Positions 12,137 through 63,730 of a stretch of 64,000 bases of DNA are shown in pieces. Each line of letters starts with the position of its first letter. The stretch's first letter is position 1. Made by a program: the position numbers and the translations under genes. The DNA lies in assembly GCA_041397645.1 (NCBI GenBank), contig JAWKWE010000008.1, forward strand, positions 28,394 to 92,393. The letters are read 5' to 3'. The notes below the pieces were generated by a model that was not told where the DNA came from, did no database searches, and saw only the letters and a list, made by a program, of their open reading frames with translations. Origin of the DNA: Hyphomicrobiaceae bacterium. Its GTDB lineage: Bacteria > Pseudomonadota > Alphaproteobacteria > Rhizobiales > Hyphomicrobiaceae.

Positions 12137-12152
12137 TCTAACGTATGTTAGA
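12137..12152. promoter_or_regulatory. Operator copy 1, TCTAAC-GTAT-GTTAGA
   Basis: Perfect 6-bp arms; overlaps the -10 of a candidate promoter TTGACA (12110-12115)-N17-TAAATC ahead of the 12170 operon. Confidence 0.8.
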
Positions 12153-12169
12153 AAAAGTTGGCTCGAGAG

Positions 12170-12907
12170 ATGGAAATGTCTAGCGCGGATCATCGGCCGC
12201 CGGCGGATCCGGCGTGCTTCACTTCCCCGTCAAACTTTATCGATAGCGACAGCGCAGAGGTGAGGGCTTTCGTAAAGTCTGCTTTGCGCAACCTGAGTTC
12301 CAGCGCTTCCGATACCGAAAAGGCAATCCGACTGTTCGAAGCGGTGCGCGATGGGATCCGGTATGATCCCTACACGTTTGAACTGAGCCCCGATGCTTAT
12401 CGCGCTAGTGTGGTGGCAGGGGCGGAGTCTGCTTTTTGTGTGCCCAAGGCGATCTTGCTGACCGCCTGCCTACGTGCTGTTGGCATTCCCGCTGCATTGG
12501 GCTTCGCCGACGTTCGTAACCATTTGAATACGCCAAAGCTAACCGAGCTGATGCAAACGGATCTCTTCATTTACCACGGATACGTGCAGCTGTGGCTCGA
12601 CGGGAGGCCCTACAAGGTTACGCCGGCCTTCAACATGGAGCTATGCAAGCGCTTCGGAGTAAAGCCTCTTCTCTTCGACGGGACGTCTGACGCTCTGTTT
12701 CACGAGTTCGACGAAAAGAATCAGAGGCACATGGAATATGTTCATGACCGGGGCTTGTATGTGGACGCGCCAATTGACGAATTCCTGGCGGCGTTTAAGG
12801 CAACCTATCCGAAGCTGGAGGAATTCAACCGTTGCCGGATCGCGGGGCGGAACGCGAAAAACTTTGACGATGGTTTCACTCCGACGGAGGAAGGACATCG
12901 GACGTGA
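12170..12907 (+). CDS. Transglutaminase-like (Cys/His) family protein
   Basis: VRDGIRYDPY, FCVPKAILL (Cys), GIPAALGFADVRNH and YHGYVQLWLDG (His). Start could also be 12176. Confidence 0.82.
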   Translation: MEMSSADHRPPADPACFTSPSNFIDSDSAEVRAFVKSALRNLSSSASDTEKAIRLFEAVRDGIRYDPYTFELSPDAYRASVVAGAESAFCVPKAILLTACLRAVGIPAALGFADVRNHLNTPKLTELMQTDLFIYHGYVQLWLDGRPYKVTPAFNMELCKRFGVKPLLFDGTSDALFHEFDEKNQRHMEYVHDRGLYVDAPIDEFLAAFKATYPKLEEFNRCRIAGRNAKNFDDGFTPTEEGHRT

Positions 12908-13353
12908 AGTACCTGGAGGATTTCAAGGTCGAACAAATCTTTGCGTTCCGCACGCCGCCCTTAAGCAAGGACGAGATAATTTCGTTTGCCAGGGAATGGG
13001 ATCCGCAGCGGCTGCACACGGATGAAGACTATGCCAGGCAAATCCATGGCGGTCTGATCGCATCGGGGTTCCAGACACTCCTGCTCGTATTCAGGCCGAT
13101 TATGCGGGACTTCATGACGGGGGTCGCAAACATCGGTGGTTTGGGCTTCGAGAGGCTATCTTGGAACGCGCCTGTGCGGCCAGATGAACCGCTTGATATC
13201 ACGTTGAAGATGCTGGCAATTCGGCCCTCCCGAACCAAGCCCGATCGCGGTGTCATCAGCTACCGTGTCGAAGCGCGCAACATGGCAGGAGAGCCCGTGC
13301 TGACCGTCGATACCGGTGCAATGGTCAAACGAAAGACAGTACTGGTGTCATGA
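12904..13353 (+). CDS. MaoC-family (hotdog) dehydratase
   Basis: YLEDFKV, FAREWDPQRLHTDED, GGLIASG and PVRPDE motifs. Confidence 0.88.
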   Translation: MKYLEDFKVEQIFAFRTPPLSKDEIISFAREWDPQRLHTDEDYARQIHGGLIASGFQTLLLVFRPIMRDFMTGVANIGGLGFERLSWNAPVRPDEPLDITLKMLAIRPSRTKPDRGVISYRVEARNMAGEPVLTVDTGAMVKRKTVLVS

Positions 13354-14459
13354 GTAATGTGAGGGCGCATTCACAGGACGATCTGCGAATGCTGCGCGGA
13401 AGCGTGCGCACACTTTTGGAGCGCGCGGGCGGCATCGCGCGCGCCCGTAACGCTCGCAACAAGGGCTGGGACCGACAGGTGATGAACGAATTGGCCCATG
13501 CTGGCGTGCTCGGTGTCGCCGCTCCAGAAGCGGTCGGCGGGCTTGGCATGGGCCTTAGCGCGGCCGGTGTCATCGCGGAAGAAGTCGGTCGCGCCCTCGC
13601 GCCCGAACCGGTGGTGTCAGCCATCGCCCTTGCGATCGGAATGATTCAACGGGTATGTCCTGGCGATGCGATGCTCGCTGCAGCGATTGGCGGTGAAATC
13701 ACCTGGGCCCTCGCTTGGCAGGAACGTGGTCTTCGAGGTTACCCTGACCAAATGGCGTGCCGATTCGACGGCAAGCTGCTGAACGGCTCGAAGGCCTGGA
13801 TTGCCGGGGCGGTCGGCGCGGATCAATTGCTCGTGGTGGCGCAAAATGATTCGCAGCCCGTTCTCGTTGCCCTCGACGCTGATGGCAAGGGAATCTACTC
13901 GGAGCTGCGACGACAGTCCGACGGAAGCCATTGCTGTGACATCGGCTTTGTCGACGCCCCAGGTAAAGTGCTGGCCGAAGGCTCGGTGGTCTCGGAAGCA
14001 TTGTCCAGCGTCGTCGCCGACGCCACGGCGCTCGCCGCCGCCGAGTTGGTCGGCGTCAGCGCAAAAGCACTCGAACTGACCCTCGATTATGTGAAGACGC
14101 GCGAGCAGTTCGGCAAACCGATTGGGTCGTTCCAGGTGATCCAGCATCGCGCCGTAGACTTGTATGTCGCTCAGCAGGTGGCCGAGGCGGGGGTGACTGA
14201 GGCGCTGGCACGGATGGATGTGAGCGCCGATCAGGGCGCGCGCATGCGTGAGGCGAGCCGCGCCAAAGCCCGCGCCTGCAGCACGGCCAAGAAGATTACC
14301 CGGGAGTCGATCCAACTTCACGGTGCAGTCGGCTATACCGACGAGTTCGACATCGGCCTGTTTCTGAACCGTGCGCTTGTGCTTTCGGCTTGGCTCGGGG
14401 ACGCCGCCCACCACCGGGCTCGTTGGATGGACGCGCTCGATGTAAATGAGGCAGGATGA
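13350..14459 (+). CDS. Acyl-CoA dehydrogenase, PimD-like alpha partner of a heteromeric pair
   Basis: REQFGKPIGSFQVIQHR and IQLHGAVGYTDE; lacks the normal xEPxxGSD FAD segment and the GGxxEI C-terminal loop. Confidence 0.85.
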   Translation: MSNVRAHSQDDLRMLRGSVRTLLERAGGIARARNARNKGWDRQVMNELAHAGVLGVAAPEAVGGLGMGLSAAGVIAEEVGRALAPEPVVSAIALAIGMIQRVCPGDAMLAAAIGGEITWALAWQERGLRGYPDQMACRFDGKLLNGSKAWIAGAVGADQLLVVAQNDSQPVLVALDADGKGIYSELRRQSDGSHCCDIGFVDAPGKVLAEGSVVSEALSSVVADATALAAAELVGVSAKALELTLDYVKTREQFGKPIGSFQVIQHRAVDLYVAQQVAEAGVTEALARMDVSADQGARMREASRAKARACSTAKKITRESIQLHGAVGYTDEFDIGLFLNRALVLSAWLGDAAHHRARWMDALDVNEAG

Positions 14460-15610
14460 TGATTGACTGGAATACACTGAGCGATGAAGCGTTCTGCCGC
14501 CACGTTCGCACCTTCTTCCAGACCGAATATCCCGAGGGGCTGCGCCATCTGTCACATCGGGCGAAGTTCGCCGAGATCCGCAAGTGGCACGAGAAGCTCT
14601 ACGCCAACGGAATGGTCGCACCGGCTTGGCCGGTCGAATATGGCGGAATGGGCCTGGAAGCTTCGAAGCTCCTAATCTTTTACGAAGAGCAACAGCGCTG
14701 GGGCGTGACGCGGGGCCGCGACATGGGAGTGCAGATGGTCGGGCCCCTTATCATCAAGTTTGGAACCCAGGCGCAGAAAGATCACTGGCTGCCGCGTATC
14801 CTTACCTGCGAGCACATTTGGTGTCAGGGCTACTCCGAACCGGGCTCAGGCTCCGACCTCGCCAGTCTGCGCACAAACGCCGTGATTAATGGCGACCATT
14901 TCGTGATCAACGGGCAGAAGATCTGGACCACCATGGCTCATGACGCCACCCACATCTTCATGCTGGTGCGCACCGATCCTAATGCCGCGAAAAAACAGGA
15001 AGGCATCAGCTTCGTGCTCGCCGATATGAACCAGCCGGGCATCGAAGTCCGCGTGATCACAACGCTCGCGGGTGAAGACGAGTTCTGCGAAGTATTCTTC
15101 GACAATGCCCGCGCGCCCCGCGAAAACCTGGTTGGCGAACTGAACAAGGGATGGACGATGGCCAAGACGTTGCTTGGCTTTGAGAGAATCTTTATTGGAG
15201 CGCCTAACTTGGCGCAAAACGCGCTTGTTCAGCTTCGGACGATTGCGCAAGGACGCTGCATGTTCAACGACCCGGTGTTCCGCGATCGCTTTGCCAAAGT
15301 CGCTCTGGATGTTGAGGATCACGCGGCACTTTATACCCGCTTCGCCGACCAACTCAAGCGTGGCGAGACGTTAGGTCCCGACGTGTCAATGCTGAAAATC
15401 TGGGTCACTGAGACTTTCCAAGAAATTACCGAGCTCATGATCGAAGCCGCGGGACCCGACGGCGGCATGACCGGTCCGTTGCAGATCGGCAATGTCGGTG
15501 TCGACGTATTGGCAAACTTCTATAAGGCGCGACCCGCAACGATCTATGGCGGAACGAATGAGATCCAGCGCAACATCTTGTCGAAAGCCGTTCTTGGCTT
15601 GCCTGGCTGA
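14456..15610 (+). CDS. Acyl-CoA dehydrogenase, PimC-like catalytic partner
   Basis: PAWPVEYGG, WCQGYSEPGSGSDLASL, GQKIWTT, LGFER and IYGGTNEIQRN. Confidence 0.92.
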   Translation: MMIDWNTLSDEAFCRHVRTFFQTEYPEGLRHLSHRAKFAEIRKWHEKLYANGMVAPAWPVEYGGMGLEASKLLIFYEEQQRWGVTRGRDMGVQMVGPLIIKFGTQAQKDHWLPRILTCEHIWCQGYSEPGSGSDLASLRTNAVINGDHFVINGQKIWTTMAHDATHIFMLVRTDPNAAKKQEGISFVLADMNQPGIEVRVITTLAGEDEFCEVFFDNARAPRENLVGELNKGWTMAKTLLGFERIFIGAPNLAQNALVQLRTIAQGRCMFNDPVFRDRFAKVALDVEDHAALYTRFADQLKRGETLGPDVSMLKIWVTETFQEITELMIEAAGPDGGMTGPLQIGNVGVDVLANFYKARPATIYGGTNEIQRNILSKAVLGLPG

Positions 15611-15645
15611 AGAGGCAGTTCCATATTTACGGAGGAAAGCACACC

Positions 15646-16455
15646 ATGTCTGACCGCTATGCCAAATACAACAAACTGAAATTCGACTTTCCGGCGGATC
15701 GCGTTCTCCGGATCACGTTCGATCGCCCCGAAACCTTCAACTCTGTGGACGCGGAAACGCACACGCAGATGACCGACATGTGGATCGATATCGACCGTGA
15801 CCCCAACATCAACGCGGTTCTCGTAACAGGAGCCGGCAAAGCGTTTTCGGCGGGTGGCGATTTCAGCCTGATCGAGCGAATAGCTGGCAATTTCGATGAA
15901 ATGATGCGGACCTGGAAGGAAGCCAAGGATCTCGTCTACAACATCATCAATTGCAATAAGCCAATCATCTCTGCGATCAATGGACCGGCCGCGGGTGCTG
16001 GGCTAGTTGTCGGAATTCTCGCCGACGTCTCGATCGCTGGTAAGCGAGCTAAAATTGTTGACGGGCACCCGCGTCTCGGGGTTGCCGCAGGTGATGTGGC
16101 TGCGATCATATGGCCGCTCCTCTGCGGTATGGCCAAGGCGAAGTATTATCTTCTGACGTGCAAGGCAATTTCCGGTGAAGAGGCTGAGCGCATTGGCTTG
16201 GTGTCCATGTGTGTCGACGATGATCAACTGCAGCAAGTTGCTCTTGATACCGCAGTTGAATTGGCAAACGGTGCGCAAAGCGCGATCCGCTGGACGAAAT
16301 ATTCGCTGAACAATTGGCTGCGCCAGGCTGGCCCGACTTTCGACGCTTCTACCGCATTCGAGATGCTGGGTTTCATGGGCCCTGACGTCAAGGAAGGGGT
16401 GCTATCGCATCGGGAAAAGCGTGCTCCCAATTTTCGCAAGGACTGTCCCATTTAG
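15646..16455 (+). CDS. Crotonase-fold protein with a His...Asp motif (6-oxocamphor-hydrolase-like segment)
   Basis: FSAGGDF and [12 protein letters not shown]; [12 protein letters not shown]...WP replaces the two catalytic Glu of classical hydratases. Confidence 0.85.
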
Positions 16456-16479
16456 GTCGTGCGGAAAGGGGATCGTTAC

Positions 16480-17676
16480 ATGCCCGACGCGATTTACCGC
16501 GAGATTGCCGTAGCCTACGGTCAGGCGGCACGCAATGCGCCCGGCCTAAAGGCGCGCTTCGATGCGGCTGGTTTCGATCCTGCAAGCATCAGATCATTGA
16601 ATGATCTGTCTCGCCTGCCGGTTCTGAAAAAGGAACAGCTCCTAGCGCTCCAAAGGGACAATCCGCCCTTTGGAGGGTTTCTCGCAGCAGATCCAAAAAG
16701 CCTGTCGCGGATCTATGTGTCGCCTGGACCGATCTTCGAGCCGTCTTTGGCGGGAGGTGGCGGACACGGCCTCAAGGAGCTTTTCAAGGCTGCGGGGATC
16801 ACGGGAGGCGATCTTATCCTGAACACATGGTCTTATCATCTGGTTCCGGCAGGTCTTTTGTTTGACGAAGCTGCGCGTGCTGTCGGCGCGACTGTCATTC
16901 CCAGCGGTACTGGAAACCGCGAACTGCAAGCGCAGATCATTGTGGAAACCGGCGTGACCGCGATCTGCGCCAGCACGGCCTTTTTCCTTGCTCTGGCGGA
17001 TAAAGTCATCGAGGCGTATGGGCGCAGCGCCTGGAAGGTGAAGTCGGCCTTCCTCGGCGGCGAGATGGGCGATTGGATGGCCAAGCGGCGTCGTATCGAG
17101 GCAGATTACGGCGTCAAGACTTGGGCCGCCTATGCTACAGCCGACCTCGGTCTTGTGGCTTACGAGGATGACGGCGAAGGGTATTCTGTGCATCCCAACC
17201 ACGTGGTACAGATCTGCGATCCCATCAGTGGAGAGCCGTTGGCCGCCGGCGAGACCGGAGAAGTTGTGGTGACCGCGCGCGACGCCAACTGGCCGATGAT
17301 CCGCTTGGGCACCGGCGATAGCGGCTTCGCTCTTGAGAGCGATGGAGATGGTCGCGTAACGCGTCTTTCGGCCTTGCAGGGGCGTGTCGGCGCAGCTGTC
17401 AAAGTTCGCGAGATTTTCGTCTACCCCCGCGCTGTTGAAGAAGTGGTTATTGCGACCCCCGGCGTGCGTGCCGCTCAAGCGGTGGTGACACGCGAGAACG
17501 GCCGCGACACCGTGCGTCTCTTACTCGTCGCGGAGCCCGGCGCTGATCATGCGCTGGCCCAAACGCGTGCCATGGAAGGATTCGCGACCAGTTCCCGAAT
17601 TCGGGCTGATGGCGTGGATTTTGTCGATCTCCTGGAGGAAAACGCGCCGCTGATTGTAAACAAAAAAGACGTCTAG
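16480..17676 (+). CDS. Phenylacetate-CoA-ligase (PaaK)-family protein with a degenerate P-loop
   Basis: PaaK-like LSRLPVLKK, YHLVPAG, GTGN, GGE and RLGTGD; SPGPIFEP stands where SSGTTG is expected. Confidence 0.75.
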   Translation: MPDAIYREIAVAYGQAARNAPGLKARFDAAGFDPASIRSLNDLSRLPVLKKEQLLALQRDNPPFGGFLAADPKSLSRIYVSPGPIFEPSLAGGGGHGLKELFKAAGITGGDLILNTWSYHLVPAGLLFDEAARAVGATVIPSGTGNRELQAQIIVETGVTAICASTAFFLALADKVIEAYGRSAWKVKSAFLGGEMGDWMAKRRRIEADYGVKTWAAYATADLGLVAYEDDGEGYSVHPNHVVQICDPISGEPLAAGETGEVVVTARDANWPMIRLGTGDSGFALESDGDGRVTRLSALQGRVGAAVKVREIFVYPRAVEEVVIATPGVRAAQAVVTRENGRDTVRLLLVAEPGADHALAQTRAMEGFATSSRIRADGVDFVDLLEENAPLIVNKKDV

Positions 17677-19040
17677 GCGGAGGGGCCAGCGTGCGACACA
17701 TGCCGTCTCGCTCGTCTGCCCATGGAGCGCGGATTGCGACGAACGTATTGAAGACCATCCAACAGCAGACTCTGCAACATCACAATCAGTTCGGGCAGGG
17801 AATAATATCCATCGCGTTGATCCTTTTCGGGATTGAACCATTCAACAGTCCAATTCAGCGCTCCTAACATGGCCTGCCGCAAGGGCACAACCTTGATATC
17901 GGACCGCAGCTCACCGGATTCCTGTGCTTTGCGTAAGCAATCATCCCAAAGGTTCGCGTATTTGTGTCGAATTGGCTGATGACGTGCTCGCACCTGCTCC
18001 GGTAGTTGTCCGTAAATGCGGATATTCGCGGACGTAAATTCGCTCAAGCGAAAGAGGTATTCCATATGGGTACGGATCGCGGCAGCTATTCTGCTGCGAT
18101 GATCAGGAAAATGGCTTTCCTGCGAAAGAGTCGCCGAGACGCCGCGCAACAACGCTCGCAATCCAATGTCCAGCACCTCGTCGAGTATCTCATTCTTTGA
18201 CCTAAAATGATAATAGATGCTGCCTGCTTCCATGCCGGCTTCTTGTGCGATATCTCGCATGGTTGCCGCTTTGTATCCCCTGTCGCGAAAGATTCGCGCC
18301 GCGGCCGAGAGCACTTGGGCGCGCGTTCGGGATGCTTTGCCGTCCTCGGCAGTAATTACTTCTAGGGTTTCCAATTCCGTAGGATCTGGTCGTGTCAGTG
18401 GGATGCCGCGTGCCTTGGACATGCCCTCCAGAAGTAGTTTAGACATGCGCTCAGACAGCATGCTGACCGGGTAGCGAGTTGCGTCATACCATTCCACGGT
18501 CCAATTCATTGCTCCCAGCACGAACTGTCGCAGCGGCACGACTTTGATGTCGATCCGAATGTCTCCAGCCTTTTGCGCTTGTTCCAGAAACTCGTCCCAT
18601 ATGGATGTATAGGTCTGGCGCAGCTTCCGATGTGGCGACCTCCTAGATCGAGGAAGCCTTGAGTAGTTCCTAATATTGGCCGAGGTGAAGCTGCCTTCCC
18701 GCAGAACATGAGTTAGGTGCGTAGTGATCATTGACGCAAACGTCTGGCGGAAATCTATGCCGGACGACCTGCAGCGGTCCCGCACCTCTTGGACAGCGTT
18801 AAGAACATCCTGAACGCCCAGCTGGAGAATCTCGTCAAGGATCGCGTCCTTCGACGCAAAGTGGTAATATAAGCTGCCCGCTTCCATGTTTGCCGCAGCT
18901 GCAATTTTGCGAAGCGTCGTGGCGCTATAACCTTCATCACGGAAAAGTTTGGCGGTGGCGCTCAGGATGAGAGCCCGCGTCTGGTCGGACTTGACGGCAG
19001 CTGTATCCACCGCGTTGGGCTTTGTAGAACGCCTATCCAT
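17673..19040 (-). CDS. Tandem double-TetR repressor (two full HTH plus ligand domains in one chain)
   Basis: Two repeats: TRALILSATAKLFRDEGYSATTLRKIA..EAGSLYYHF..LGAMNWTVEWY and TRAQVLSAAARIFRDRGYKAATMRDIA..EAGSIYYHF..LGALNWTVEWF. Converges on the previous gene with a shared CTAG. Confidence 0.9.
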   Translation of the reverse strand: MDRRSTKPNAVDTAAVKSDQTRALILSATAKLFRDEGYSATTLRKIAAAANMEAGSLYYHFASKDAILDEILQLGVQDVLNAVQEVRDRCRSSGIDFRQTFASMITTHLTHVLREGSFTSANIRNYSRLPRSRRSPHRKLRQTYTSIWDEFLEQAQKAGDIRIDIKVVPLRQFVLGAMNWTVEWYDATRYPVSMLSERMSKLLLEGMSKARGIPLTRPDPTELETLEVITAEDGKASRTRAQVLSAAARIFRDRGYKAATMRDIAQEAGMEAGSIYYHFRSKNEILDEVLDIGLRALLRGVSATLSQESHFPDHRSRIAAAIRTHMEYLFRLSEFTSANIRIYGQLPEQVRARHQPIRHKYANLWDDCLRKAQESGELRSDIKVVPLRQAMLGALNWTVEWFNPEKDQRDGYYSLPELIVMLQSLLLDGLQYVRRNPRSMGRRARRHVSHAGPSA

Positions 19041-20027: not shown

Positions 20028-20029
20028 GT

Positions 20030-55063: not shown

Positions 55064-55071
55064 GACCCGCC

Positions 55072-57180: not shown

Positions 57181-57190
57181 CCTTTGAGGG

Positions 57191-57235: not shown

Positions 57236-57271
57236 ATGTAGGATTGGAAATTTGGGACTAACAGACGGGAG

Positions 57272-58525
57272 ATGAGAATGTCGGTCGAAAAAGCAATAAA
57301 ATGGCTCGTGGTCGCCGCTGCCATCAGCGTCGCAGGATGCGCGCAGGCTTTAGCTCAGGAGACCTTGAAATTCGGTGCGTGCTTTGATCTCAGTAAATCC
57401 TATACCTTCATCTCACCGCAGGTGGCGCAAGCCGCGCAGGATCTTGCCGCGCTTACGAACATGAAGGGCGGCATCGATGGGCACAAGATCGAGATCGTGG
57501 TTCAGGACCACGGCAATGAGCCCCAGCGCGGCATTGAATGCTACGAAAAGCTTAAGCGTGAAGGCGTCTTCGTCTTTAACATGCTGTCGACCCCCGTGTC
57601 GATCGCGGTGCTGCCGCGGATCATGAAGGAGAAGAATGTCCTTATCCAGTCGTTGGTCGGGCGCGGTGACGCCATCGACGGTTCGATCTTCACTCAGATC
57701 TTTCCAGTGGGTGCAACTTATTGGGGGCAGGCTGCCAACGATATCGCCTATATCAAACAACTGCGCGGCGGCGACATGAAAGGGGCCAAGATCGGATTTA
57801 TCTATCTCGACTATCCTTTTGGTCAGGAGCCGATCGGTATCCTCAAGACTCTCGCCGAACGCGAGGGCTTTGAACTAAAGCTTTATCCTGTACCTTTGCC
57901 CGGCAGCGATCAGACCAGCGTTTGGACACAGGTGCGACGCGACCAGCCTGATTTCATGATCAGCTGGCTGCTGGCCGGAGGACATGTCGTGGCAGCCAAA
58001 GAAATGAAGCGCAACGGCTATCCGATCGAAAAGTACATTTCGGTCAACTGGCTTAACGAGGTGGATATTGCCAATATTGGTCCCGAGGCTGCCAAGGGGA
58101 TCAAGCGTGGAACAAACGTCGTCGGTGGTCAGGATGTTCCGATCATCAGGGAGATGACGGCAGAGCTTTATGCCAAAGGCAAAGGCAGCGGGCCCGAGAA
58201 AAACCTGAAGGACGTGTATTACAATACCGGTTTAGCTATCTATTCGGTCGCTTTCGAGGCTACCCGCAACGCCATCAAACAGGCGGGTTGGCCGGTGACC
58301 GCAGCCTCGATGAAGGGCGGATATGAGAGCATAAAGGACTTCGACGCCAATGGCCTGCTTGCCCCCGTGACTGTAACGGCGGCAGACCATGGCGGCGGGG
58401 GCAAGACGCGGATCGAAATGTGGGACGGCCAGAAGTGGGTGCCGCAGACTGCTTGGTTATCAGCCTATCAGGACCTGATCTGGCAGATCGTGAAGACGAG
58501 TTCATCTGGATTCAAGGTCGAGTAA
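57272..58525 (+). CDS. ABC substrate-binding protein, copy 2 (tandem paralog)
   Basis: Same motifs as copy 1 with long identical stretches and a different signal peptide. Confidence 0.88.
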   Translation: MRMSVEKAIKWLVVAAAISVAGCAQALAQETLKFGACFDLSKSYTFISPQVAQAAQDLAALTNMKGGIDGHKIEIVVQDHGNEPQRGIECYEKLKREGVFVFNMLSTPVSIAVLPRIMKEKNVLIQSLVGRGDAIDGSIFTQIFPVGATYWGQAANDIAYIKQLRGGDMKGAKIGFIYLDYPFGQEPIGILKTLAEREGFELKLYPVPLPGSDQTSVWTQVRRDQPDFMISWLLAGGHVVAAKEMKRNGYPIEKYISVNWLNEVDIANIGPEAAKGIKRGTNVVGGQDVPIIREMTAELYAKGKGSGPEKNLKDVYYNTGLAIYSVAFEATRNAIKQAGWPVTAASMKGGYESIKDFDANGLLAPVTVTAADHGGGGKTRIEMWDGQKWVPQTAWLSAYQDLIWQIVKTSSSGFKVE

Positions 58526-58572
58526 TTCAGGCACCCAACGAGTTAATAGCATACGCGTCGGCGGGTGCAATC

Positions 58573-58609
58573 CGGCTCGGCGGCGGGCAATGCATCCGTC
58601 GCCGAGCCG
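58573..58609 (+). other. GC-rich stem-loop after SBP2 (mRNA stabiliser or attenuating terminator)
   Basis: 14-bp stem CGGCTCGGCGGCGG / CCGTCGCCGAGCCG with one G-U pair and a 9-nt loop; no U-tract. Confidence 0.55.
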
Positions 58610-58640
58610 CCAATCTTCAGCGCGAAAGCCAGTGAACTCC

Positions 58641-59423
58641 ATGGTTGATAGTCCAATCCAAGTCAGCGTCGATGAGGGTATTGCTACCGTTTTTATCAAT
58701 CGTCCTGAGCGCAAGAACGCTCTATCTGTGGCGGCCGCCAATGGACTGGCCGACGCGTGGGATCAGATCGAAGCGGATGCCAAGATCCGAGTGGTAATTC
58801 TAACCTCTGCCGATTGTGGCGTCTTCAGCGCAGGGCTTGACCTCAAGGAGGCGGCCGAGATCGCTCGCAATGAGCACGTCGATATCCTCTCCAAAATGCG
58901 CGATCCTTTCCACGAGCGCATGCGCGCCTGCTCGAAGCCGATCGTTGCCGCGATGACCGGCTCGCTCATGGCGGGAGGGATGATGCTGTCGCTCATGTGC
59001 GATCTGCGCGTGGGTCTCAAGAGAACCAAAGTCGGGATCACGGAGGTCAAGATCGGTCGCGGCTCGCCGTGGGCCGCTCCGGCCCTCTATATGCTCCCTC
59101 AGGCGATCCTTATGGAGATCGTTCTGACCGGCGATCTCATGCCAATTGAACGGCTGCACGATTACGGCTTCACCAATTATCTTGAAGATACACCCGACGC
59201 AGTGCGGTCTCGTGCGATGGATCTGGCACGACGGATTGCCGCCGGCGCGCCGTTGTCCGTAATTGCGGCCAAGGCCAGTGTTCGCGCGACAATGGATCTC
59301 GGATGCCGCGCCGGGCTGGTAGAAGGCGCTCGCCTTCACGAGGTCGTTTATGCCAGCCGAGACGCAATTGAAGGCCCCAGAGCTTTCGCCGAAAAGCGCA
59401 AGCCGGTCTGGCAGGGCAGGTAG
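58641..59423 (+). CDS. Enoyl-CoA hydratase/isomerase family protein (single catalytic Glu)
   Basis: NRPERKNAL, FSAGLDL, AGGMML (no first Glu), GITEVKIG and EGPRAFAEKRKPVW. Confidence 0.87.
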   Translation: MVDSPIQVSVDEGIATVFINRPERKNALSVAAANGLADAWDQIEADAKIRVVILTSADCGVFSAGLDLKEAAEIARNEHVDILSKMRDPFHERMRACSKPIVAAMTGSLMAGGMMLSLMCDLRVGLKRTKVGITEVKIGRGSPWAAPALYMLPQAILMEIVLTGDLMPIERLHDYGFTNYLEDTPDAVRSRAMDLARRIAAGAPLSVIAAKASVRATMDLGCRAGLVEGARLHEVVYASRDAIEGPRAFAEKRKPVWQGR

Positions 59424-59527
59424 GGCCGCCACGATCGAACGGCGCTGTCGGGAGTTCAGAACGCACGGTTTCAGCAACTCCGCGATGCGTGTTACTTTAT
59501 TTGTCAAGAATTAGGGGAGCGATCGCA

Positions 59528-60763
59528 GTGGGCAGTGTTGCGTTTGAGCTTCCCGAAGACGTCATTGAAGTGCGCGACGGCGTTCTGCGCTTCGTCGAGT
59601 CGCAGGTCGTTCCGCTGATTGACCGGAATCGCGCGCTTCTCGAAGATCAGCGGCGCCTGTATGACGAATACGGTCGATACTCGGCCGAAGTACGCAAGTT
59701 GATCCAAGAAGTCAGGATGCTTTCGGCCGAAGCCGGCTTCTATGCGATGTGCGCACCCGCGGAAATCGGAGGAGGGGGGCTGGGGCATCTGGCCTACTAC
59801 GTGGCCTGGGAGGCGATATATCGCCGACTCGGAGGACAGGGCGTCATCATTCCCTGGGTCATTGCTCATTGGGCCTTCGGTCCCAGCCGGTTACTCACCC
59901 AGGTCACGGAGGAGGCCCGCGAGAGATGTCTGGCGGGCATGATGGCTGGGAAGACATCGATGTGCTTTGGTCTTTCCGAGCCAGGGGCTGGCTCAGACGC
60001 CAGCATGATCAAGACGCGGGCTGGCAAGACCGGACCAGGCTGGAAAATCTCTGGCCGCAAGCTTTGGACAACAAACGCTCCCACCGCGGAATGGTGTGTC
60101 GTTTTCGCCATCACCGATGTCGAGAAAGCCGCGCGAAAGGCTGGAGGCATCAGCGCATTTCTCGTTCCAACCGATGCACGAGGATTCCATGTTGAGAGTG
60201 TAGTGCGCTTGTTTGGTCACGCCGGGGGTCACGAGGGCGCTCTCGTGCTTGAGGATGTCGATGTGCAGCCCTGGCAATTGGTCGGCGAGCTCGACGAGGG
60301 ATTTAAGATCGCACTTTATGGAGTCTCGCTGGGTCGGGTCTACAACGCTGCCCGTGCTGTCGGACAGGGAAGATGGGCGCTGGAAATGGCCATCGACTAT
60401 TCGAAGCAACGTGAGGCCTTCGGTGCCAAGATCGCGGAGTATCAAGCCGTCTCGTTCCCGATAGCCGAGGCAGCCACGGAATTGCATGCCGCGCACCTGA
60501 TGGGATTGAATGCAGCGATGCTCCTCGACCGCGGCGATAAGGCGCCGAAGGAGCTTTCAATGGCAAAGGCCTATTCGGTACAAGCCGGATTTCGCGCCGT
60601 GGATCGCGCAATTCAGACACACGGCGGCATGGGATTGACGAACGAAATCGGTCTTGTTCACGCTTGGCAAGACCTTCGGATCGTCAACATTGCCGACGGT
60701 ACGAATGAAATTCTGACGCGGATGATTGCCCAGCGGTTGTTGGCAGGCGACGTCGATCTCTAG
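59528..60763 (+). CDS. Acyl-CoA dehydrogenase
   Basis: AGGGGAG RBS then GTG; FGLSEPGAGSDA, GRKLWTTN, REAFGAKI and NIADGTNEI. Confidence 0.9.
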   Translation: MGSVAFELPEDVIEVRDGVLRFVESQVVPLIDRNRALLEDQRRLYDEYGRYSAEVRKLIQEVRMLSAEAGFYAMCAPAEIGGGGLGHLAYYVAWEAIYRRLGGQGVIIPWVIAHWAFGPSRLLTQVTEEARERCLAGMMAGKTSMCFGLSEPGAGSDASMIKTRAGKTGPGWKISGRKLWTTNAPTAEWCVVFAITDVEKAARKAGGISAFLVPTDARGFHVESVVRLFGHAGGHEGALVLEDVDVQPWQLVGELDEGFKIALYGVSLGRVYNAARAVGQGRWALEMAIDYSKQREAFGAKIAEYQAVSFPIAEAATELHAAHLMGLNAAMLLDRGDKAPKELSMAKAYSVQAGFRAVDRAIQTHGGMGLTNEIGLVHAWQDLRIVNIADGTNEILTRMIAQRLLAGDVDL

Positions 60764-60816: not shown

Positions 60817-61689
60817 TCAGGTGAACCGCAGTTGCACCTCCATGGCGATGGTCCCGCCCGGCGTCATTGCCCACAGCTCGGCGCCCGCGCCGCCGTCGAC
60901 GGGGCGTCCGGCGACGTCGAACGGCGTGGTATCGAACAAAGGTGCACGCGCGCGTTGCGTGAATGAGGCGATCGTCCTGCTCGCATTGTTGTCCCGGACG
61001 AGATCGATGAGGCATTGCTGCGAATAAGGGCCGTGCACCACCAGCCCGGGGTAACCCTCCACGGTTGTCGCGTAAGTCCGATCGTAGTGAATACGATGCG
61101 GGTTGAAGGTCACAGCAGAATAGCGGAACAGCGATACCGGTTCCGTTGTGATCTGCCGCGTCCACGGTAGGTCGGCGGGCGGCGTATCTCGCTTCGGTAT
61201 CCCGCTTTTCTCCCCCGGCTTCACGGCGTCGCGAAACACGGTGTAACTCTCCTCCACGATCGCGAGGCCGCGTGGCGAGAATATGCGCCGCGTTTGCGTG
61301 GCAAAGATGAGAGGGCCCGTACTGCCGGAACGCAACGTCATGTCTGTCAGTTCCGTCTCGCGCTTGAGCGCGTCCCCCACCAGCAGCGGATGATGAAACG
61401 TCAGGCTCGTGCCCGCGTACATGCGCCGCGGGAACGGCACATCGGGAATGACGCCCCCCGACGTTGGCAGGCCATCCTCGCCCAGCGTCGCCCTGCGCGC
61501 GAAGGAATGGAAATAGGCGAGGTGCCATCCCGGCGGAATCGCTTCGCCCCTGGTGGGTACCTGATCGTCTCGGTCGAATGCAGCCACGAGCCCGAAGAGC
61601 GGCGCTCGCGTGGCTTCGTCTTCTTCCACGATCTTCGCGCCTATGTGCTTGCGCAAACTGTCAATGTCGATTTCGGCAGCCATCGTCAT
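60817..61689 (-). CDS. Double-hotdog (R)-hydratase, mesaconyl-C4/itaconyl-CoA-hydratase-like
   Basis: PPGWHLAYF, GEDG, PRRMYAG, LFRYSAVTFNPHRIHYD, GYPGLVVHGP and RARAPLF. Confidence 0.85.
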   Translation of the reverse strand: MTMAAEIDIDSLRKHIGAKIVEEDEATRAPLFGLVAAFDRDDQVPTRGEAIPPGWHLAYFHSFARRATLGEDGLPTSGGVIPDVPFPRRMYAGTSLTFHHPLLVGDALKRETELTDMTLRSGSTGPLIFATQTRRIFSPRGLAIVEESYTVFRDAVKPGEKSGIPKRDTPPADLPWTRQITTEPVSLFRYSAVTFNPHRIHYDRTYATTVEGYPGLVVHGPYSQQCLIDLVRDNNASRTIASFTQRARAPLFDTTPFDVAGRPVDGGAGAELWAMTPGGTIAMEVQLRFT

Positions 61690-61713
61690 TCTCCCAGGCT
61701 GGGTGCAGGCATG

Positions 61714-62139
61714 TCAGCTCGCGGGCGCTGCAAGAACGAATCCGGGCAGTGTGAGGCCGGGTTTCGCTTTCTCGAAAACGAGGCGGACGGGCATGCCGAT
61801 CTCGAGCCGCGTGTCCGCCGGCGCATGCAGTCGCCCCAGCATGCGCACGCCTTCCTCCAGATCGACCGTCACCAGCGTGCAGGGCAGGTCGGACCTGTAA
61901 GCGTCGTGAAACGGATGATGCGTAATCGTCCAGCTGTGAATCGTACCTTGCTCTAATGCCTCGACCCACCGGGTTTCGAAGGAATGGCATGCATCGCATA
62001 CCGGCCGGGGATAATGCCGGACCTTTCCGCAGCCCGCGCATTGCTGAAGCAGCAACTTGCCTTCGTTGAGGCCCTCCCAATAGGGCATAGTGTCTGGTGT
62101 CGGTTCGGGCACGAGCCTCGAATATGTGTCGCCAATCAT
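61714..62139 (-). CDS. DUF35 Zn-ribbon/OB-fold protein
   Basis: PYWEGL, QQCAGC..HYPRPVCDAC, VDLEEGVRM and IGMPVRLVF. Confidence 0.9.
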   Translation of the reverse strand: MIGDTYSRLVPEPTPDTMPYWEGLNEGKLLLQQCAGCGKVRHYPRPVCDACHSFETRWVEALEQGTIHSWTITHHPFHDAYRSDLPCTLVTVDLEEGVRMLGRLHAPADTRLEIGMPVRLVFEKAKPGLTLPGFVLAAPAS

Positions 62140-62143
62140 ACTC

Positions 62144-63295
62144 TCAACCTCTCCTCATGATCGCGACCGACCCGTCGCCCATGTCGCCGTAACCGGAGAC
62201 GAGACCCAGTTCAGCGCCGTTTACTTGGGCTTTTCCGGCACTCCCCCTGAGCTGCTTTACGAGCTCGACCACATGATTCATCCCAACCATGTGCGCTTGG
62301 GACAGCAGACCGCCATGCGTGTTGACCGGGAGCCTGCCGCCAAGCCTTATGGCGCCGCTCTCGACAAACGGCCCGCCCTCGCCCTTCCTGCAGAAGCCGA
62401 TATCTTCCAGCTGGCAGAGCACGACATACGTGAAACAATCGTAGATCTCGGCCACTTGAATTTCCCGAGGCGTAACGCCCGCCATCGCAAACGCCTTGGG
62501 TGCGGCTTTGGCGATGCCCAAACGCGTCATGTCGGGACGCTGGGTGATCGAACTCGGAGAGTCGGGATGTCCTTCGGCGACGCCCATGATGAGGATCGGC
62601 TTCTGGCGCAAATCTCTGCTGCGCTCGGCAGCGCTGACGACGATTGCAGCACCGCCATCGCTCTCGAGACTGCAGTCCAGCAACCGCAGCGGATCGGAGA
62701 TCATGCGCGAATTCTGATGATCTTCGATCGTGACAGGCTTCGTCATCATCGCATTGCCGTTCAGGGCCGCGTTGTGGCGTGTCGACACGGCGATCTCGCC
62801 GAGTTGGCGGCTTGTCGTGCCGTAGAGCTCCATATGCCGCCGTGCCATCGGGGCGTAGAGCTGCGCCGGCGCGATTGCCCCGATTGGCATCTCGAATTCG
62901 CCGACAACCTTGAACTGCGGCATCTGCTGTACGCGTGTGCCGATACGGCCTGCAGACGAGCCGTTCCGTCCGATCGGCAGCAGGACATGATTGCAAAGAC
63001 CCGCACCGATCGCCAGGAGTGCGGCTTGAATTCCGGCCACGCAACTCGCGCCTCCGAGAGGCGTTGTGGCTGAAAAACGAAGATCCTCGATACCGAAGTT
63101 AGTCACGAAATCCTCGGCGACGACAGCTGAATTCGAATAGGGAATGATCCCGTCGATGTCTCTTGGCGACAATCCGGCGTCCTCGATGGCCTTCAGCGAG
63201 GCTTCGAGCTGGAGAGCGAGCACGCTTTTTCCGGAGTTGCGGCTGTAGGCCGTCTCGCCGACGCCGGTTATGGCGACCCGTTCCTTCAATACCAT
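62144..63295 (-). CDS. SCP2/Ltp2-type thiolase-fold protein
   Basis: AITGVGET, GGASC, PLRLLDCSLESDGG, IYDCFT and NTHGGLLSQAH; GAGGAG RBS before ATG 63295. Confidence 0.88.
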   Translation of the reverse strand: MVLKERVAITGVGETAYSRNSGKSVLALQLEASLKAIEDAGLSPRDIDGIIPYSNSAVVAEDFVTNFGIEDLRFSATTPLGGASCVAGIQAALLAIGAGLCNHVLLPIGRNGSSAGRIGTRVQQMPQFKVVGEFEMPIGAIAPAQLYAPMARRHMELYGTTSRQLGEIAVSTRHNAALNGNAMMTKPVTIEDHQNSRMISDPLRLLDCSLESDGGAAIVVSAAERSRDLRQKPILIMGVAEGHPDSPSSITQRPDMTRLGIAKAAPKAFAMAGVTPREIQVAEIYDCFTYVVLCQLEDIGFCRKGEGGPFVESGAIRLGGRLPVNTHGGLLSQAHMVGMNHVVELVKQLRGSAGKAQVNGAELGLVSGYGDMGDGSVAIMRRG

Positions 63296-63331
63296 CTGTA
63301 GTCTCCTCGAATGCACTGCGGGGCAGTTGTC

Positions 63332-63670
63332 CTAGCGACAGGCGAAGCTCGGTGCGATTCTATTCGCAAAAAGCTCCAGCGAGCCGAAATCCTGGCCGCG
63401 CTCGTGAATGCTTCGCGGAATGAGCCGGAAACACTCGTTCACCCGGAATACGCTTATAGCGGCGAACTCATTGGCGACCTCAAAGCCTGTCGATCTGCAG
63501 GTGGTGCTCGAGTATCCGAAACCGGTATAACCGGCTTGTTCAGCGACTTGGACGTACCCCGCGATCTCTTGCAACATGCGCTGATAGGGTTCGGGCCGCT
63601 TGCCGGCCATGCCAGCTTTGAGCTCCTGCGGCCGACCAATCGTGCAGTACATGCATAGATTGAAATCCAC
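63332..63670 (-). pseudogene. Internally deleted luciferase-like (LLM-class) flavin monooxygenase
   Basis: AAGGAG RBS and GTG; LLM N-terminus (MYCTIGR..AGMAG..YQRML..AEQAGY), hidden out-of-frame EHHLQID at 63509-63489, joined to a C-terminal SLELFANRIAPSF; only 112 codons. Confidence 0.7.
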
Positions 63671-63714
63671 GGAGCGAACTCCTTGACGCCGGTCGTGGGA
63701 AGTAACAATATGAA

Positions 63715-63730
63715 CCGAACAAACGTTAGA
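63715..63730. promoter_or_regulatory. Operator copy 7, CCGAAC-AAAC-GTTAGA
   Basis: Overlaps the -10 of minus-strand TTGACT (63751-63746)-N17-TAACGT (63728-63723), in the gap before a divergent ACAD. Confidence 0.78.

Follow-up and report, generated by a model that had tools for sequence, protein, structure and literature searches.

The locus raises the question of whether a short sequence that recurs between its genes is the operator of a single regulator, and which protein reads it. A sequence-only reading of the window (the whole 64,000-nt stretch analysed here) had listed seven intergenic 16-mers and assigned them to one repressor of an island-wide regulon. All seven were present at the positions given. 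A symmetrised position weight matrix (PWM) built from these sites scored them at 22.2–27.5 bits while the next best 16-mer in the window reached 11.2 bits; there are therefore exactly seven copies, with no weaker tail. Allowing at most two mismatches, the degenerate pattern proposed earlier gave 12 strand-matches in the window against 1.27 ± 1.22 in 100 dinucleotide shuffles, none of which reached 12. The motif is better described as the palindrome TCTAAC-N4-GTTAGA, the core of a family-wide 20-bp form, aW-TCTAACA-nn-TGTTAGA-Wt. The flank positions A(-1) and W(0), which are external to the PWM, carry about 1 bit each and thus lend independent support to an operator.

Non-coding DNA makes up ~6.5% of the window, and the claim that every copy is intergenic, with none in coding sequence, holds once start codons are corrected. 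The sites at 26491 and 49419 fall inside mechanically over-extended ORFs, yet they lie 5' of the real starts, for which ribosome-binding sites are present (minus-strand ATG 26460 for OYE, 26553 for ACAD and 49474 for SDR_4, the last lying 40 bp downstream of operator 6). Four sites (19085, 26491, 39520 and 63715) are divergent, as had been proposed, and 48275 may be a fifth.

Table 1. Sites, genes and operons in the window, with the proposed role of each.
Feature	Coordinates	Strand	Sequence or gene content	Score or basis	Remarks
Operator 1	12135..12154 (core 12137–12152)		TCTAACGTATGTTAGA	27.5 bits	heads operon 12170–17676(+)
Operator 2	19083..19102 (core 19085–19100)		TCGAACATTCGTTAGA	24.3 bits	between divergent tandem-TetR and SDR_2 genes
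Operator 3	26489..26508 (core 26491–26506)		TCTAACGTTTGTTAGG	24.0 bits	between divergent OYE reductase gene and ACAD_5 operon
Operator 4	39518..39537 (core 39520–39535)		TCAAACATATGTTAGA	25.8 bits	between SDR_3-TE-TE(−) and CT-ECH-BC-ACAD(+)
Operator 5	48273..48292 (core 48275–48290)		CCGAACAAACGTTAGA	22.2 bits	upstream of BVMO operon (−) and gene-poor stretch (+)
Operator 6	49417..49436 (core 49419–49434)		TCTAACACATGTTAGA	25.6 bits	heads SDR_4–ABC importer–ECH–ACAD operon
Operator 7	63713..63732 (core 63715–63730)		CCGAACAAACGTTAGA	22.2 bits	between SCPx-DUF35-MaoC(−) and partial ACAD-like ORF (+)
Target operon	12170..17676	+	transglutaminase-like, MaoC, ACAD, ACAD, ECH, PaaK-like ligase	Pfam	
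Tandem (double) TetR	17673..19037	−	454 aa from ATG 19037		alternative starts 19061, 19073
Target gene SDR_2	19152..19913	+	BadH-like short-chain dehydrogenase	Pfam	always divergent from regulator
IS21-family insertion	19964..22274	−	istA/istB	Pfam, GC profile	GC ~66%
Ligase-like gene	22303..24240	+	acetate/acetoacetate-CoA-ligase-like		severed from operator here by IS21
Target gene OYE	24427..26460	−	OYE/FadH-type 2,4-dienoyl-CoA reductase-like flavoenzyme		
Target operon	26553..37438	+	ACAD, ECH, ACAD, PaaK-like ligase, carboxyltransferase, biotin carboxylase-BCCP, HMG-CoA-lyase-like, possibly also a CoA ligase past a 189-bp gap		
Target operon	37560..39407	−	SDR_3, two hotdog thioesterases		
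Target operon	39599..45184	+	carboxyltransferase, ECH, biotin carboxylase-BCCP, ACAD		liu/atu-like order
Probable target operon	45350..48058	−	Baeyer-Villiger-type flavin monooxygenase, two ORFs without Pfam match		
Target operon	49474..60763	+	SDR_4, LIV-type ABC importer with embedded acyl-CoA ligase, two binding proteins, ECH, ACAD		
Target operon	60817..63316	−	SCPx-type thiolase, DUF35/OB-fold (ChsH2-C-like), MaoC double hotdog		
ORF 5' end	63902..64000	+	MDLSYGPKYRALQQEVRGFVKSYG…		runs off window, downstream of operator 7

The promoters marked by the seven sites belong to a mobile island of ~50 kb for fatty-acyl-CoA-type degradation. The genes behind operator 1 are syntenic in a Bradyrhizobium locus (L002; 91–98% identical), and this block is also found on a Sulfitobacter plasmid, which has the same gene order as the 26553..37438 operon as well. 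A CoA ligase that follows a 189-bp gap is possibly a further member of the latter. The SDR_3/two-thioesterase module is kept beside the regulator in three related loci (L052, L025 and L022), and the 39599..45184 operon is conserved in L009 and on the plasmid. The Baeyer-Villiger (BVMO) operon is probably under operator 5, judging from its position, and from its N-terminal sequence we would guess that the truncated ORF beyond operator 7 encodes an ACAD. The earlier statement that the sites cover all visible promoter regions is nearly right, the exceptions being the 189-bp gap itself (35697–35884), a second gap (11042–11472), and the TetR1-led carboxylase operon that comes first (48–11041) and whose promoter lies off the window.

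The copies had also been said to overlap -35/-10 pairs, which was confirmed in part. A strict sigma-70 scan found such an overlap at two of the seven operators (19085, and 26491 on the minus strand), with no enrichment over shuffles; as a result, the geometry given here is largely a relaxed or by-eye reading. At operator 1, TTGACA-16-ATAAAT ends at 12137 (relaxed scan), and the operator therefore begins on the last base of the -10. Sparse, unstranded metatranscriptome contigs, a weak guide, begin in the bin containing this operator, and none covers 11000–12101. At operator 2, TGGACA-16-GATAAT ends at 19085, and at operator 3 TTTGCA-17-TAGAAT on the minus strand overlaps the left arm (both strict scan). 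The relaxed scan also added candidates at operator 5 (TTGACA-17-CACTGT on the plus strand, TTGACT-17-TAACGT on the minus strand) and operator 7 (TTGACG-17-CAATAT, 10/12, on the plus strand, TTGACT-17-TAACGT on the minus strand). Matches made by eye are TTGCCG-17-TAGGTT (operator 3, plus strand), TTGCAG-17-TAGATA (operator 6) and, at 39520, where the promoter scan gave no match, TTGACC-16-TAGAAA.

The most likely reader of the seven sites is the tandem TetR. Its sequence contains two TetR_N and two TetR_C_24 domains, in halves that are 46% identical (E = 9e-63). The recognition helices of both halves read EAGS(I/V)YYHFxSK; across α2-turn-α3, 17 of 23 positions are identical and α3 differs by I/V only. 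Invariant residues match between the two ligand domains. In an AF2 model (pLDDT 83.7, pTM 0.82), the protein is predicted to fold as an intramolecular pseudo-dimer like Mce3R, whose full-length DNA-bound structure (9b7y) was its best fold match (420 columns, TM 0.73); the half-length matches were acyl-CoA TetRs.

We then scored 80 related loci, covering ±10 kb around the regulator, with the PWM trained on the window sites, which would miss more divergent operators and gives counts that vary with the threshold. In 1.44 Mb there were 178 sites against 0–3 in simulated DNA, and none of the 178 lay inside homology-defined genes. With a match of at least 14 bits within 300 bp as the definition, a site preceded the tandem-TetR gene in 77/77 testable loci, at a median of 49 bp, and operator 2 is presumed to be its autoregulatory site. 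Site-bearing loci span Bradyrhizobium, Rhodobacteraceae, Phyllobacteriaceae, Sneathiella, Ferrovibrio and Nisaea, and sites are conserved at orthologous promoters in at least four alphaproteobacterial orders. The divergent SDR_2 gene was preceded by a site in 75/75 loci; the same was true of homologs of ACAD_5 (31/31, at 41–53 bp), OYE (32/33), the transglutaminase (6/6, operator 1 having its ortholog in the L002 site at 16931) and SDR_4 (3/4), and internal operon genes had essentially no upstream sites. More than 50 loci have a 16-mer of the operator 4 type, TCAAACAYATGTTAGA, ~6.3 kb downstream of where the tandem-TetR gene starts, and the 49474..60763 operon also lies downstream of a site in L072. 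In a 16-genus footprint (A3), operator 2 was the sole invariant block of the tandem-TetR/SDR_2 intergenic alignment, with conserved -35 and -10 blocks next to it. Outgroup proteins share the helix type, and their own promoters contain related palindromes (CCTAAC-TATC-GTTTGA in Polaromonas, CCTAATC-CA-GATTAGG in Rhodococcus). Hundreds of alphaproteobacterial species share this conserved combination of repressor, operator and target genes.

The plasmid mentioned above, NZ_CP040754.1, is a complete 147.5-kb Sulfitobacter conjugative plasmid. At 18 bits or more it has 8 sites (next best 11.7); all fall within a 66-kb homologous island that matches in gene content, and the remaining 82 kb has none. 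All stand at operon heads in PGAP intergenic gaps; 94789 corresponds to operator 6, with the same operon downstream, and 82310, adjoining the OB-fold/thiolase genes, to operator 7. With exclusively intergenic sites at operon heads, the regulon is real, and the claim of island-wide control is supported apart from the first 11 kb, to which we do not extend it.

Could a conventional single-domain TetR homodimer read the operator, the tandem TetR being merely a target? In spacing the operator matches the PsrA box, TTCAAAC-N4-GTTTGAA, and its half-site is almost identical though distinct, with an exact TCAAAC arm in 39520. There are also single-domain relatives, up to ~50% identical to one half of the tandem TetR, that share its recognition helix, a Polaromonas protein among them. 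The candidates would be a PsrA/FadR-like protein encoded elsewhere or TetR1 (48–743), which has a YsiA/FadR-like C-domain. Both local TetR proteins had been put forward for binding tests; TetR1 was dropped, its homologs being found in 0/80 related loci. The tandem TetR scored 78 bits with the NCBIfam PsrA model, whose cut-off is 300. Within the ±10 kb covered, the only gene that always adjoins a site encodes the tandem TetR, in a classic divergent autoregulatory layout, and its two near-identical heads are what a palindrome demands, so that we regard a separate homodimer as unlikely. The sites could also be LexA/Cheo-box-like SOS elements (CGAAC-N4-GTTCG) or short dispersed repeats carried by the island, since CGAAC-N4-GTT occurs within 19085, 48275 and 63715, a search of the literature for AAC-N4-GTT yielded nothing but LexA and unrelated papers, and 48275 and 63715 lie in paralogous promoter modules of ~60 bp. 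However, no SOS gene adjoins any site, all targets are acyl-CoA catabolic, and the LexA of alphaproteobacteria recognises a direct repeat, GTTC-N7-GTTC. Beyond ~20 bp the flanks are unconserved except in that paralogous pair. The distance to orthologous starts is fixed across orders, as at ACAD_5, and this is what one expects of a cis-regulatory site rather than a mobile repeat. Together with the locus, footprint and plasmid data, this largely refutes such an origin, to which we give hardly any credence.

That the tandem TetR binds the sites but activates or regulates in both directions, or that it forms a chain dimer looping between two operators, seems unlikely, slightly more so than a separate homodimer. 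PsrA both activates and represses, Mce3R pseudo-dimers dimerise further on DNA (a C2 dimer), just 1.1 kb, in which no clear gene lies, separates operators 5 and 6, and several sites have weak promoter assignments. At the best-supported promoters, however, the operator lies against or over the -10 and start region, the position of a repressor, and most operators are single and kilobases apart. FadR, KstR2, AibR and PfmR, the acyl-CoA-liganded relatives, are repressors. Mce3R is the only characterised double TetR, and its operator is asymmetric, in contrast to the palindrome here; given this and its dimerisation, one chain per palindrome is not guaranteed for the tandem TetR.

As a whole, the data are best explained, with good probability, by seven operators of a single-chain double TetR repressor; binding and repression are predictions from sequence. 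Two TetR modules, each with a helix-turn-helix and a ligand-binding domain, would fold against each other, so that one chain may do the job of the homodimer of ordinary TetR regulators. The recognition helices would face successive major grooves and each read one TCTAACA arm; the arm centres are 10 bp apart in the 20-bp palindrome. At 12137, 19085, 48275 and 63715, the operator would begin 0–4 nt past the -10 hexamer and cover the transcription start, and at 26491, 39520 and 49419 it would fill the -35/-10 spacer, its right arm (TAGRWW) serving as the -10. Once bound, the repressor would keep RNA polymerase from both promoters wherever a pair is divergent, its own promoter included, and inducer would release it. 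A CoA thioester formed by ligases of the pathway itself is the probable inducer, because each half is related to acyl-CoA-sensing TetRs (FadR, PfmR, KstR2 and AibR) and the two ligand domains share their invariant residues. In this reading the regulon amounts to a mobile island of 50–66 kb that would serve the uptake and β-oxidation-like breakdown of a carboxylic acid. Our guess is that this substrate is probably methyl-branched and/or alicyclic, given three biotin carboxylase/hydratase/HMG-CoA-lyase-type sets, the BadH-like SDR (353 bits against NCBIfam BadH, under the 431 cut-off), the OYE reductase and the BVMO. The motif had been called unlike any described operator, and indeed its strings were absent from the searchable literature; neither there nor in the main proteobacterial regulon atlas did we find such a regulon. 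Repressor, operator and target-gene set appear to be undescribed.

The IS21 insertion lies outside the regulon and disrupts it. The acetate/acetoacetate-CoA-ligase-like gene is contiguous with SDR_2 in Bradyrhizobium L002, where the insertion is absent, and on the Sulfitobacter plasmid, and is normally co-transcribed with it. An RNA contig of run X25 skips the insertion, fusing 19963 straight to 22275.

The sequence-only reading had described seven copies of an intergenic operator, each overlapping a -35/-10 pair, through which one repressor would control the whole island. All seven 16-mers were found in the window. Scanning with the degenerate pattern of that reading and up to two mismatches gave 12 strand-matches, which correspond to seven places, five of them matched on both strands, as the site is palindromic; shuffled sequence gave 1.27 ± 1.22 matches, and no shuffle reached 12. 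With a symmetrised matrix (PWM) trained on the window's own seven sites, these scored 22.2–27.5 bits and the best other 16-mer in the 64 kb scored 11.2 bits, a clear gap from which we conclude that the window holds exactly seven copies. Two of them, at 26491 and 49419, fall within mechanically called ORFs whose over-extended heads are artefacts; the true starts, each with a ribosome-binding site, lie downstream of the operators, and thus all seven sites are intergenic after start correction, in a window that is about 93% coding. Each site stands at an operon head or in the gap between two divergent operons.

Promoter overlap, by comparison, was borne out for some of the sites. A strict sigma-70 scan supported it for two of the seven (19085 and 26491) and a relaxed scan added 12137, 48275 and 63715, while for 39520 and 49419 the pair was seen by eye only. 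Strict sigma-70 matches were not enriched over shuffles in the window scan, in which two of the seven operators were flagged. A transcription start at operator 1 is compatible with metatranscriptome contigs, which are of low depth, unstranded and not decisive. Operators 5 and 7 are identical (CCGAACAAACGTTAGA), and each lies within a paralogous module of about 60 bp, with CTTGAC…GTAACA upstream and AAGTCAAA downstream. Since the latter is the reverse complement of an opposite-strand TTGACT -35, these modules look like a duplicated compact bidirectional promoter.

Coordinates of the operators and of the other features discussed (window positions unless another sequence is named)
Feature	Position	Details
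Operator 1	12137	Promoter TTGACA-16-ATAAAT (relaxed scan)
Operator 2	19085	Promoter TGGACA-16-GATAAT (strict scan), its last base being the operator's first
Operator 3	26491	Minus-strand promoter TTTGCA-17-TAGAAT (strict scan)
Operator 4	39520	
Operator 5	48275	Surrounding region 48215–48320
Operator 6	49419	
Operator 7	63715	Surrounding region 63655–63760
Ordinary TetR (TetR1)	48–743	
Carboxylase operon 'a', headed by TetR1	48–11041	Operon promoter off-window
184-aa ORF	11473–12027	
Tandem TetR	17673–19037 (−)	454 aa
IS21-family element (istA/istB)	19964–22274	2311 bp; GC ~66% vs 57% around
OYE reductase, true start	26460 (−)	ATG
ACAD_5, true start	26553	
Gene-poor stretch	48059–49473	1.4 kb, between two operators
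SDR_4, true start	49474	
Carboxylase homologs, locus L025	16329–21254	Downstream of tandem-TetR operator
Carboxylase homologs, locus L052	16365–20542	Downstream of tandem-TetR operator
Rhodococcus locus L085, intergenic region	5632–5970	Perfect palindrome
Polaromonas locus L086	5038–5053	CCTAACTATCGTTTGA
Catabolic island of plasmid NZ_CP040754.1	41.2–106.7 kb	~66 kb

The window encodes two TetR proteins, of which the tandem one lies directly beside the site at 19085. This protein carries two TetR_N and two TetR_C_24 domains in a single chain (PF00440 twice, total E = 4.9e-36; PF17932 twice). Its halves are 46% identical (E = 9e-63), and over α2-turn-α3 the consensus sequences of the two halves agree at 17 of 23 positions; among 22 family members, EAGS(I/V)YYHFxSK is the sequence of both recognition helices. 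Invariant residues are also paired across the ligand domains (H107/H324, S119-N121-R123/S336-N338-R340, R133/R350, H136/H353 and R140/R357), and NW..EW is present in both. An AlphaFold2 model was all-α (pLDDT 83.7, pTM 0.82), with disorder limited to the linker 223–227 and the termini, and the two modules are predicted to pair within one chain as a pseudo-dimer, an arrangement that double TFRs of the Mce3R type build on a four-helix bundle. A palindrome whose arm centres are 10 bp apart would call for two near-identical DNA-reading heads held in this way. The family is annotated publicly only as 'TetR family transcriptional regulator', and JGI pipelines automatically mislabel several members as 'cholesterol catabolism regulator'; NCBIfam has no dedicated model for the regulator, and the assembly look-up returned no record of the exact protein.

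The tandem TetR family is compact in Alphaproteobacteria, with 314 matches, the best 120 of which are all 408–502 aa long, and a relative of the regulator is encoded in at least 246 GTDB species genomes. We collected 80 loci with 10 kb of flank on either side from Bradyrhizobium, many Rhodobacteraceae, Phyllobacteriaceae, Sneathiella, Ferrovibrio and Nisaea. Across these 1.44 Mb the window PWM detected 178 sites scoring 14 bits or more, as against 0–3 in Markov-simulated sequence, and none of the 178 fell within homology-defined genes. Counting a site when it lay no more than 300 bp upstream of a gene's homolog, we found one before the tandem TetR in 77/77 loci (median distance 49 bp), before the divergent SDR_2 in 75/75, and before the first genes of other site-headed operons: OYE reductase in 32/33, ACAD_5 in 31/31 (at 41–53 bp), TGase in 6/6 and SDR_4 in 3/4. 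Genes internal to operons had essentially no sites, with three isolated matches over about 25 gene families. When the sequences between regulator and SDR were aligned for 16 genera, the operator was the sole invariant block; it is flanked by conserved TTTAT/TTATC and then, about 17 bp on, by TGTCCAG, the reverse complements of the -10 and -35 (TGGACA) of the SDR promoter. Pooling 89 distinct sites gave the consensus aW-TCTAACA-nn-TGTTAGA-Wt, a near-perfect palindrome of 20 bp in which the outer A/W positions, absent from the PWM, each contribute roughly 1 bit. In 84% of arms the half-site has T and not A at its third position, and few arms read TCAAAC. The Bradyrhizobium loci are the same as the window in synteny, with 86–94% DNA identity and a GC content of 59%. 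At the protein level, most enzymes encoded near the regulator are 85–98% identical to those of the window, but the regulator itself reaches only about 80% in these loci (L001–L006) and seems to evolve faster than its own targets.

The regulator was also found on 43 PLSDB plasmids, 40 of them alphaproteobacterial and 14 of the 43 predicted to be conjugative; the hosts are mostly Pseudosulfitobacter and Sulfitobacter, with Sagittula, Roseibium, Marinovum and Phaeobacter among the others. In many Roseobacters a plasmid carries the island in its entirety, and the island is widespread in marine, often alga-associated members of that group as well as being present in Bradyrhizobium. We read one complete conjugative plasmid, the 147,547-bp NZ_CP040754.1 of Sulfitobacter sp. 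BSw21498, with its PGAP annotation. Its catabolic island has essentially the same gene content as the window and additionally carries ETF genes, genes for a B12-dependent acyl-CoA mutase together with MeaB, and two further single-domain TetR genes; outside the island the plasmid encodes replication, partition, type IV secretion, defence and other functions. The PWM found eight sites of at least 18 bits (next best 11.7); every one of them is within the island, and the remaining 82 kb has none. All eight occupy annotated intergenic gaps at operon heads: four between two genes (regulator and SDR; dienoyl-CoA reductase and ACAD; OB-fold/thiolase and CoA transferase; lipid-transfer protein and ligase), and the others upstream of TGase, of SDR-ABC, of ACAD-ACAD-SDR-ECH-PaaI-PaaI and of TetR-CT-ECH-BC-ACAD. 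The island is therefore mobile, being carried on a conjugative plasmid, and the island-wide regulon proposed for the window was independently reproduced in a homologous island from another bacterial order. Sequence, statistics, conservation and co-occurrence stand as observations; the finding is real, and its interpretation as one repressor with one operator was essentially right.

Several other explanations of the repeated motif were weighed. None of the 80 loci encodes a homolog of the ordinary TetR (TetR1), which was therefore ruled out as the binder. A dispersed repeat or MITE was rejected because, apart from the paralogous pair at 48275 and 63715, the flanks beyond about 20 bp are not conserved. 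The LexA/Cheo-box of the SOS response (CGAAC-N4-GTTCG), which precedes DNA-repair genes, was rejected: only partial arm matches to it occur, in three sites, the neighbouring genes are all acyl-CoA catabolic and the taxonomy is against it. The nearest described motif is the box of PsrA, TTCAAAC-N4-GTTTGAA, which has the same AAC-N4-GTT core and spacing and lies from -18 to +20 of PsrA's own promoter. PsrA, known from Pseudomonas, Shewanella and others, is likewise an autoregulated TetR-family controller of β-oxidation that answers to fatty acids. However, its half-site TCAAAC differs from TCTAAC by one base per arm, the window motif does not conform to the PsrA operator definition C/GAAAC-N2-4-GTTTG/C, and PsrA is a single-domain homodimer whose targets are general fad/etf genes and not this island. 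The tandem TetR scored 78 bits against the NCBIfam PsrA model NF053516 (cut-off 300) and is no PsrA ortholog. KstR and KstR2 of Actinobacteria resemble it as TetR repressors, KstR governing a large multi-operon lipid/steroid catabolic regulon from a motif (TnnAACnnGTTnnA) in its own divergent promoter, overlapping the -10. The KstR operator TnnAAC-N2-GTTnnA (TAGAAC-N2-GTTCTA) has an N2 arm spacing versus N4 here, KstR is a single-domain dimer, and the tandem TetR reached 46 bits against NF033703 (cut-off 280).

The palindrome itself is placed as TetR-family operators are, at the regulator's own promoter and between a divergent gene pair. Mce3R (Rv1963c) of Mycobacterium tuberculosis has been shown experimentally to form an intramolecular pseudo-dimer (PDB 9b7y), and, like 204 predicted actinomycete double TFRs, it has been described as an infrequent fusion of two dissimilar TetRs (PMC11667970, PMC3711444). 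Like Mce3R, the tandem TetR has two complete TetR modules per polypeptide, and the DNA-bound Mce3R structure was the top PDB match in Foldseek and the best over the full length (420 aligned columns, TM 0.73), but at only 16% identity. The targets of Mce3R are likewise lipid/β-oxidation-type genes, and its halves are similar to acyl-CoA sensors of the KstR2/Fad35R type. In contrast, those halves show 'weak homology' and belong to distinct TetR subgroups, whereas the halves of the tandem TetR are nearer to each other than to any outgroup half; the Mce3R operator is long, asymmetric and non-palindromic, whereas the putative operator here is nearly a perfect palindrome; and the described double-TFR family is actinomycete, the tandem TetR alphaproteobacterial. 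With similar halves and a palindromic operator, the protein thus lacks two defining features of double TFRs. The remaining Foldseek matches each span one half and are all acyl-CoA-sensing TetRs (PfmR, FadR, AibR, KstR2), in agreement with the sequence search. The best matches per half in both sequence and fold, Bacillus/Thermus FadR, PfmR and AibR, repress acyl-CoA catabolic operons and are freed by CoA thioesters; they differ in being homodimers of chains of about 190 aa with other operators. Single-chain TetR has been engineered from two TetR copies and a linker, giving a covalent pseudo-dimer that acts on a palindromic operator as one chain. That protein is synthetic, whereas the tandem TetR is natural, is conserved across at least 246 species-level genomes and has halves that are now 46% identical. 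We found nothing specific in the open-access literature on the motif, the regulon, the pathway or tandem/double TetRs outside actinomycetes. The system represents an ordinary kind, a TetR repressor with a palindromic operator in a catabolic cluster, in a form that is unusual and, it appears, not yet described; what sets it apart is the duplicated single-chain TetR, the symmetric operator and a large mobile island kept across orders.

Two outgroups bear on the origin of the duplication. Between the window and Sulfitobacter, N halves are 54% and C halves 70.5% identical, as orthologs, while N and C halves are about 45% identical to each other. A tandem TetR from the Rhodococcus sp. DK180 plasmid pDK3 is colinear with the alphaproteobacterial protein at 31.6% identity, and its halves are 46.8% identical to each other but only 28–37% to either alphaproteobacterial half. 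Plasmid 2 of Polaromonas sp. JS666 encodes a single-domain TetR that is 40–43% identical to every half compared, and this system looks like the unduplicated form. Related palindromes are present in the promoter regions of both regulators: CCTAAC-TATC-GTTTGA in Polaromonas, about 50 bp upstream of the SDR-TetR operon, and CCTAATC-CA-GATTAGG in Rhodococcus, so some actinomycete double TetRs may, unlike Mce3R, also use symmetric operators. The simplest reading of these comparisons is that duplication recurred within one TetR subfamily; the alternative is concerted evolution in place of recurrent duplication. We give an even chance to the fuller proposal that internal duplication of an alphaproteobacterial acyl-CoA-sensing TetR, separate from the origin of Mce3R and, it seems, from that of the tandem TetRs in Rhodococcus, produced a natural covalent pseudo-dimer reading a symmetric operator as one chain, and that this protein governs a conjugative catabolic island of 50–66 kb as its master switch. 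The Rhodococcus gene is divergent from a CaiB–ACAD–HMG-CoA lyase–ACAD–MaoC operon, and the Polaromonas TetR lies within a similar ABC-importer/SDR/MaoC/PaaI cluster.

In our model, one tandem-TetR chain would bind one 20-bp palindrome and occlude the -10/start region at class I sites (12137, 19085, 48275 and 63715) or the spacer/-10 at class II sites (26491, 39520 and 49419). Both promoters of each divergent pair, the regulator's own included, would be repressed, and a CoA-thioester of the pathway would release the repressor, an inducer class suggested by the relatives of each half and by the regulon content. On the fuller proposal, single-chain forms would have arisen repeatedly in one TetR subfamily, and one may ask what covalent dimerisation offers: possibly the avoidance of mixed dimers with paralogous TetRs when the island moves between hosts' genomes, dimerisation independent of concentration, or two ligand pockets free to diverge. 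Mce3R, the only studied double TetR, suggested that fusions serve asymmetric DNA; the tandem TetR family indicates that a symmetric operator can be kept, and a 20-bp site with a 454-aa protein offers a clean system for asking why covalent dimers evolve. The operator is also a precise marker of a large mobile catabolic island, its PWM permits regulon prediction in genomes with a tandem TetR, and for synthetic biology the pair is predicted to be a naturally optimised single-chain repressor and operator. A reporter made from the operator and repressor would allow the inducer to be screened for directly and, through it, the compound that the pathway degrades.

The window is one large acyl-CoA catabolic cluster. 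Biotin carboxylase/carboxyltransferase genes occur in three sets, and there are some eleven genes for acyl-CoA dehydrogenases, six for CoA ligases (AMP-forming or PaaK-like) and others for enoyl-CoA and MaoC hydratases. The cluster further encodes thioesterases, an enzyme of the HMG-CoA-lyase type, a thiolase of the SCPx type and its DUF35/OB-fold partner, a flavoenzyme of the OYE/2,4-dienoyl-CoA-reductase type, a Baeyer-Villiger-type monooxygenase (BVMO), a BadH-like SDR (353 bits, below the NCBIfam cut-off of 431) and a LIV-type ABC importer whose genes enclose that of a CoA ligase. The HMG-CoA lyase exceeded its NCBIfam subfamily cut-off (257 vs 246 bits); the carboxylases, ligases and BVMO reached no equivalog-level NCBIfam name. 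Atu/Liu-type pathways remove β-methyl branches, and all their enzyme types (biotin-dependent carboxylase, enoyl-CoA hydratase, HMG-CoA-lyase-type enzyme and ACAD) occur here in three sets. By analogy, these repeated carboxylase/hydratase/lyase sets suggest β-methyl-branch removal, and the BadH-like SDR, OYE reductase and BVMO suggest alicyclic or ketone intermediates. Many hosts of the plasmids were isolated from diatoms, dinoflagellates, coccolithophores or corals, which hints at an alga-derived substrate.

Other features of the cluster were observed. The IS21-family element lies between SDR_2 and an acetate/acetoacetate-CoA-ligase-like gene, which it now parts from the operator and promoter at 19085. 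These two genes adjoin without it in Bradyrhizobium locus L002 and on the Sulfitobacter plasmid, and the existence of an IS-free allele is shown by a metatranscriptome contig (run X25) in which 19963 is followed directly by 22275. The carboxylase operon headed by TetR1 has homologs that lie downstream of a tandem-TetR operator in Phyllobacteriaceae and Rhodobacteraceae loci (L025 and L052), a difference that may reflect regulatory rewiring. The 184-aa ORF has no Pfam match and may not be a gene, since the metatranscriptomes examined gave no RNA contigs over 11000–12101. The gene-poor stretch contains no convincing gene; its ORFs had no Pfam match, and tblastn with all window proteins gave nothing significant, which led us to reject descent from a paralog of one of the local genes. 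The stretch may represent some other gene that has decayed, a long leader, or non-coding RNA. Near-identical DNA (0.84–0.97 of sampled words) was present in sequencing runs X1–X20, from drinking-water, bioreactor-sludge, cold-seep, 'snake' and synthetic-community metagenomes, which fits a widespread environmental or water-system Bradyrhizobium-like organism.
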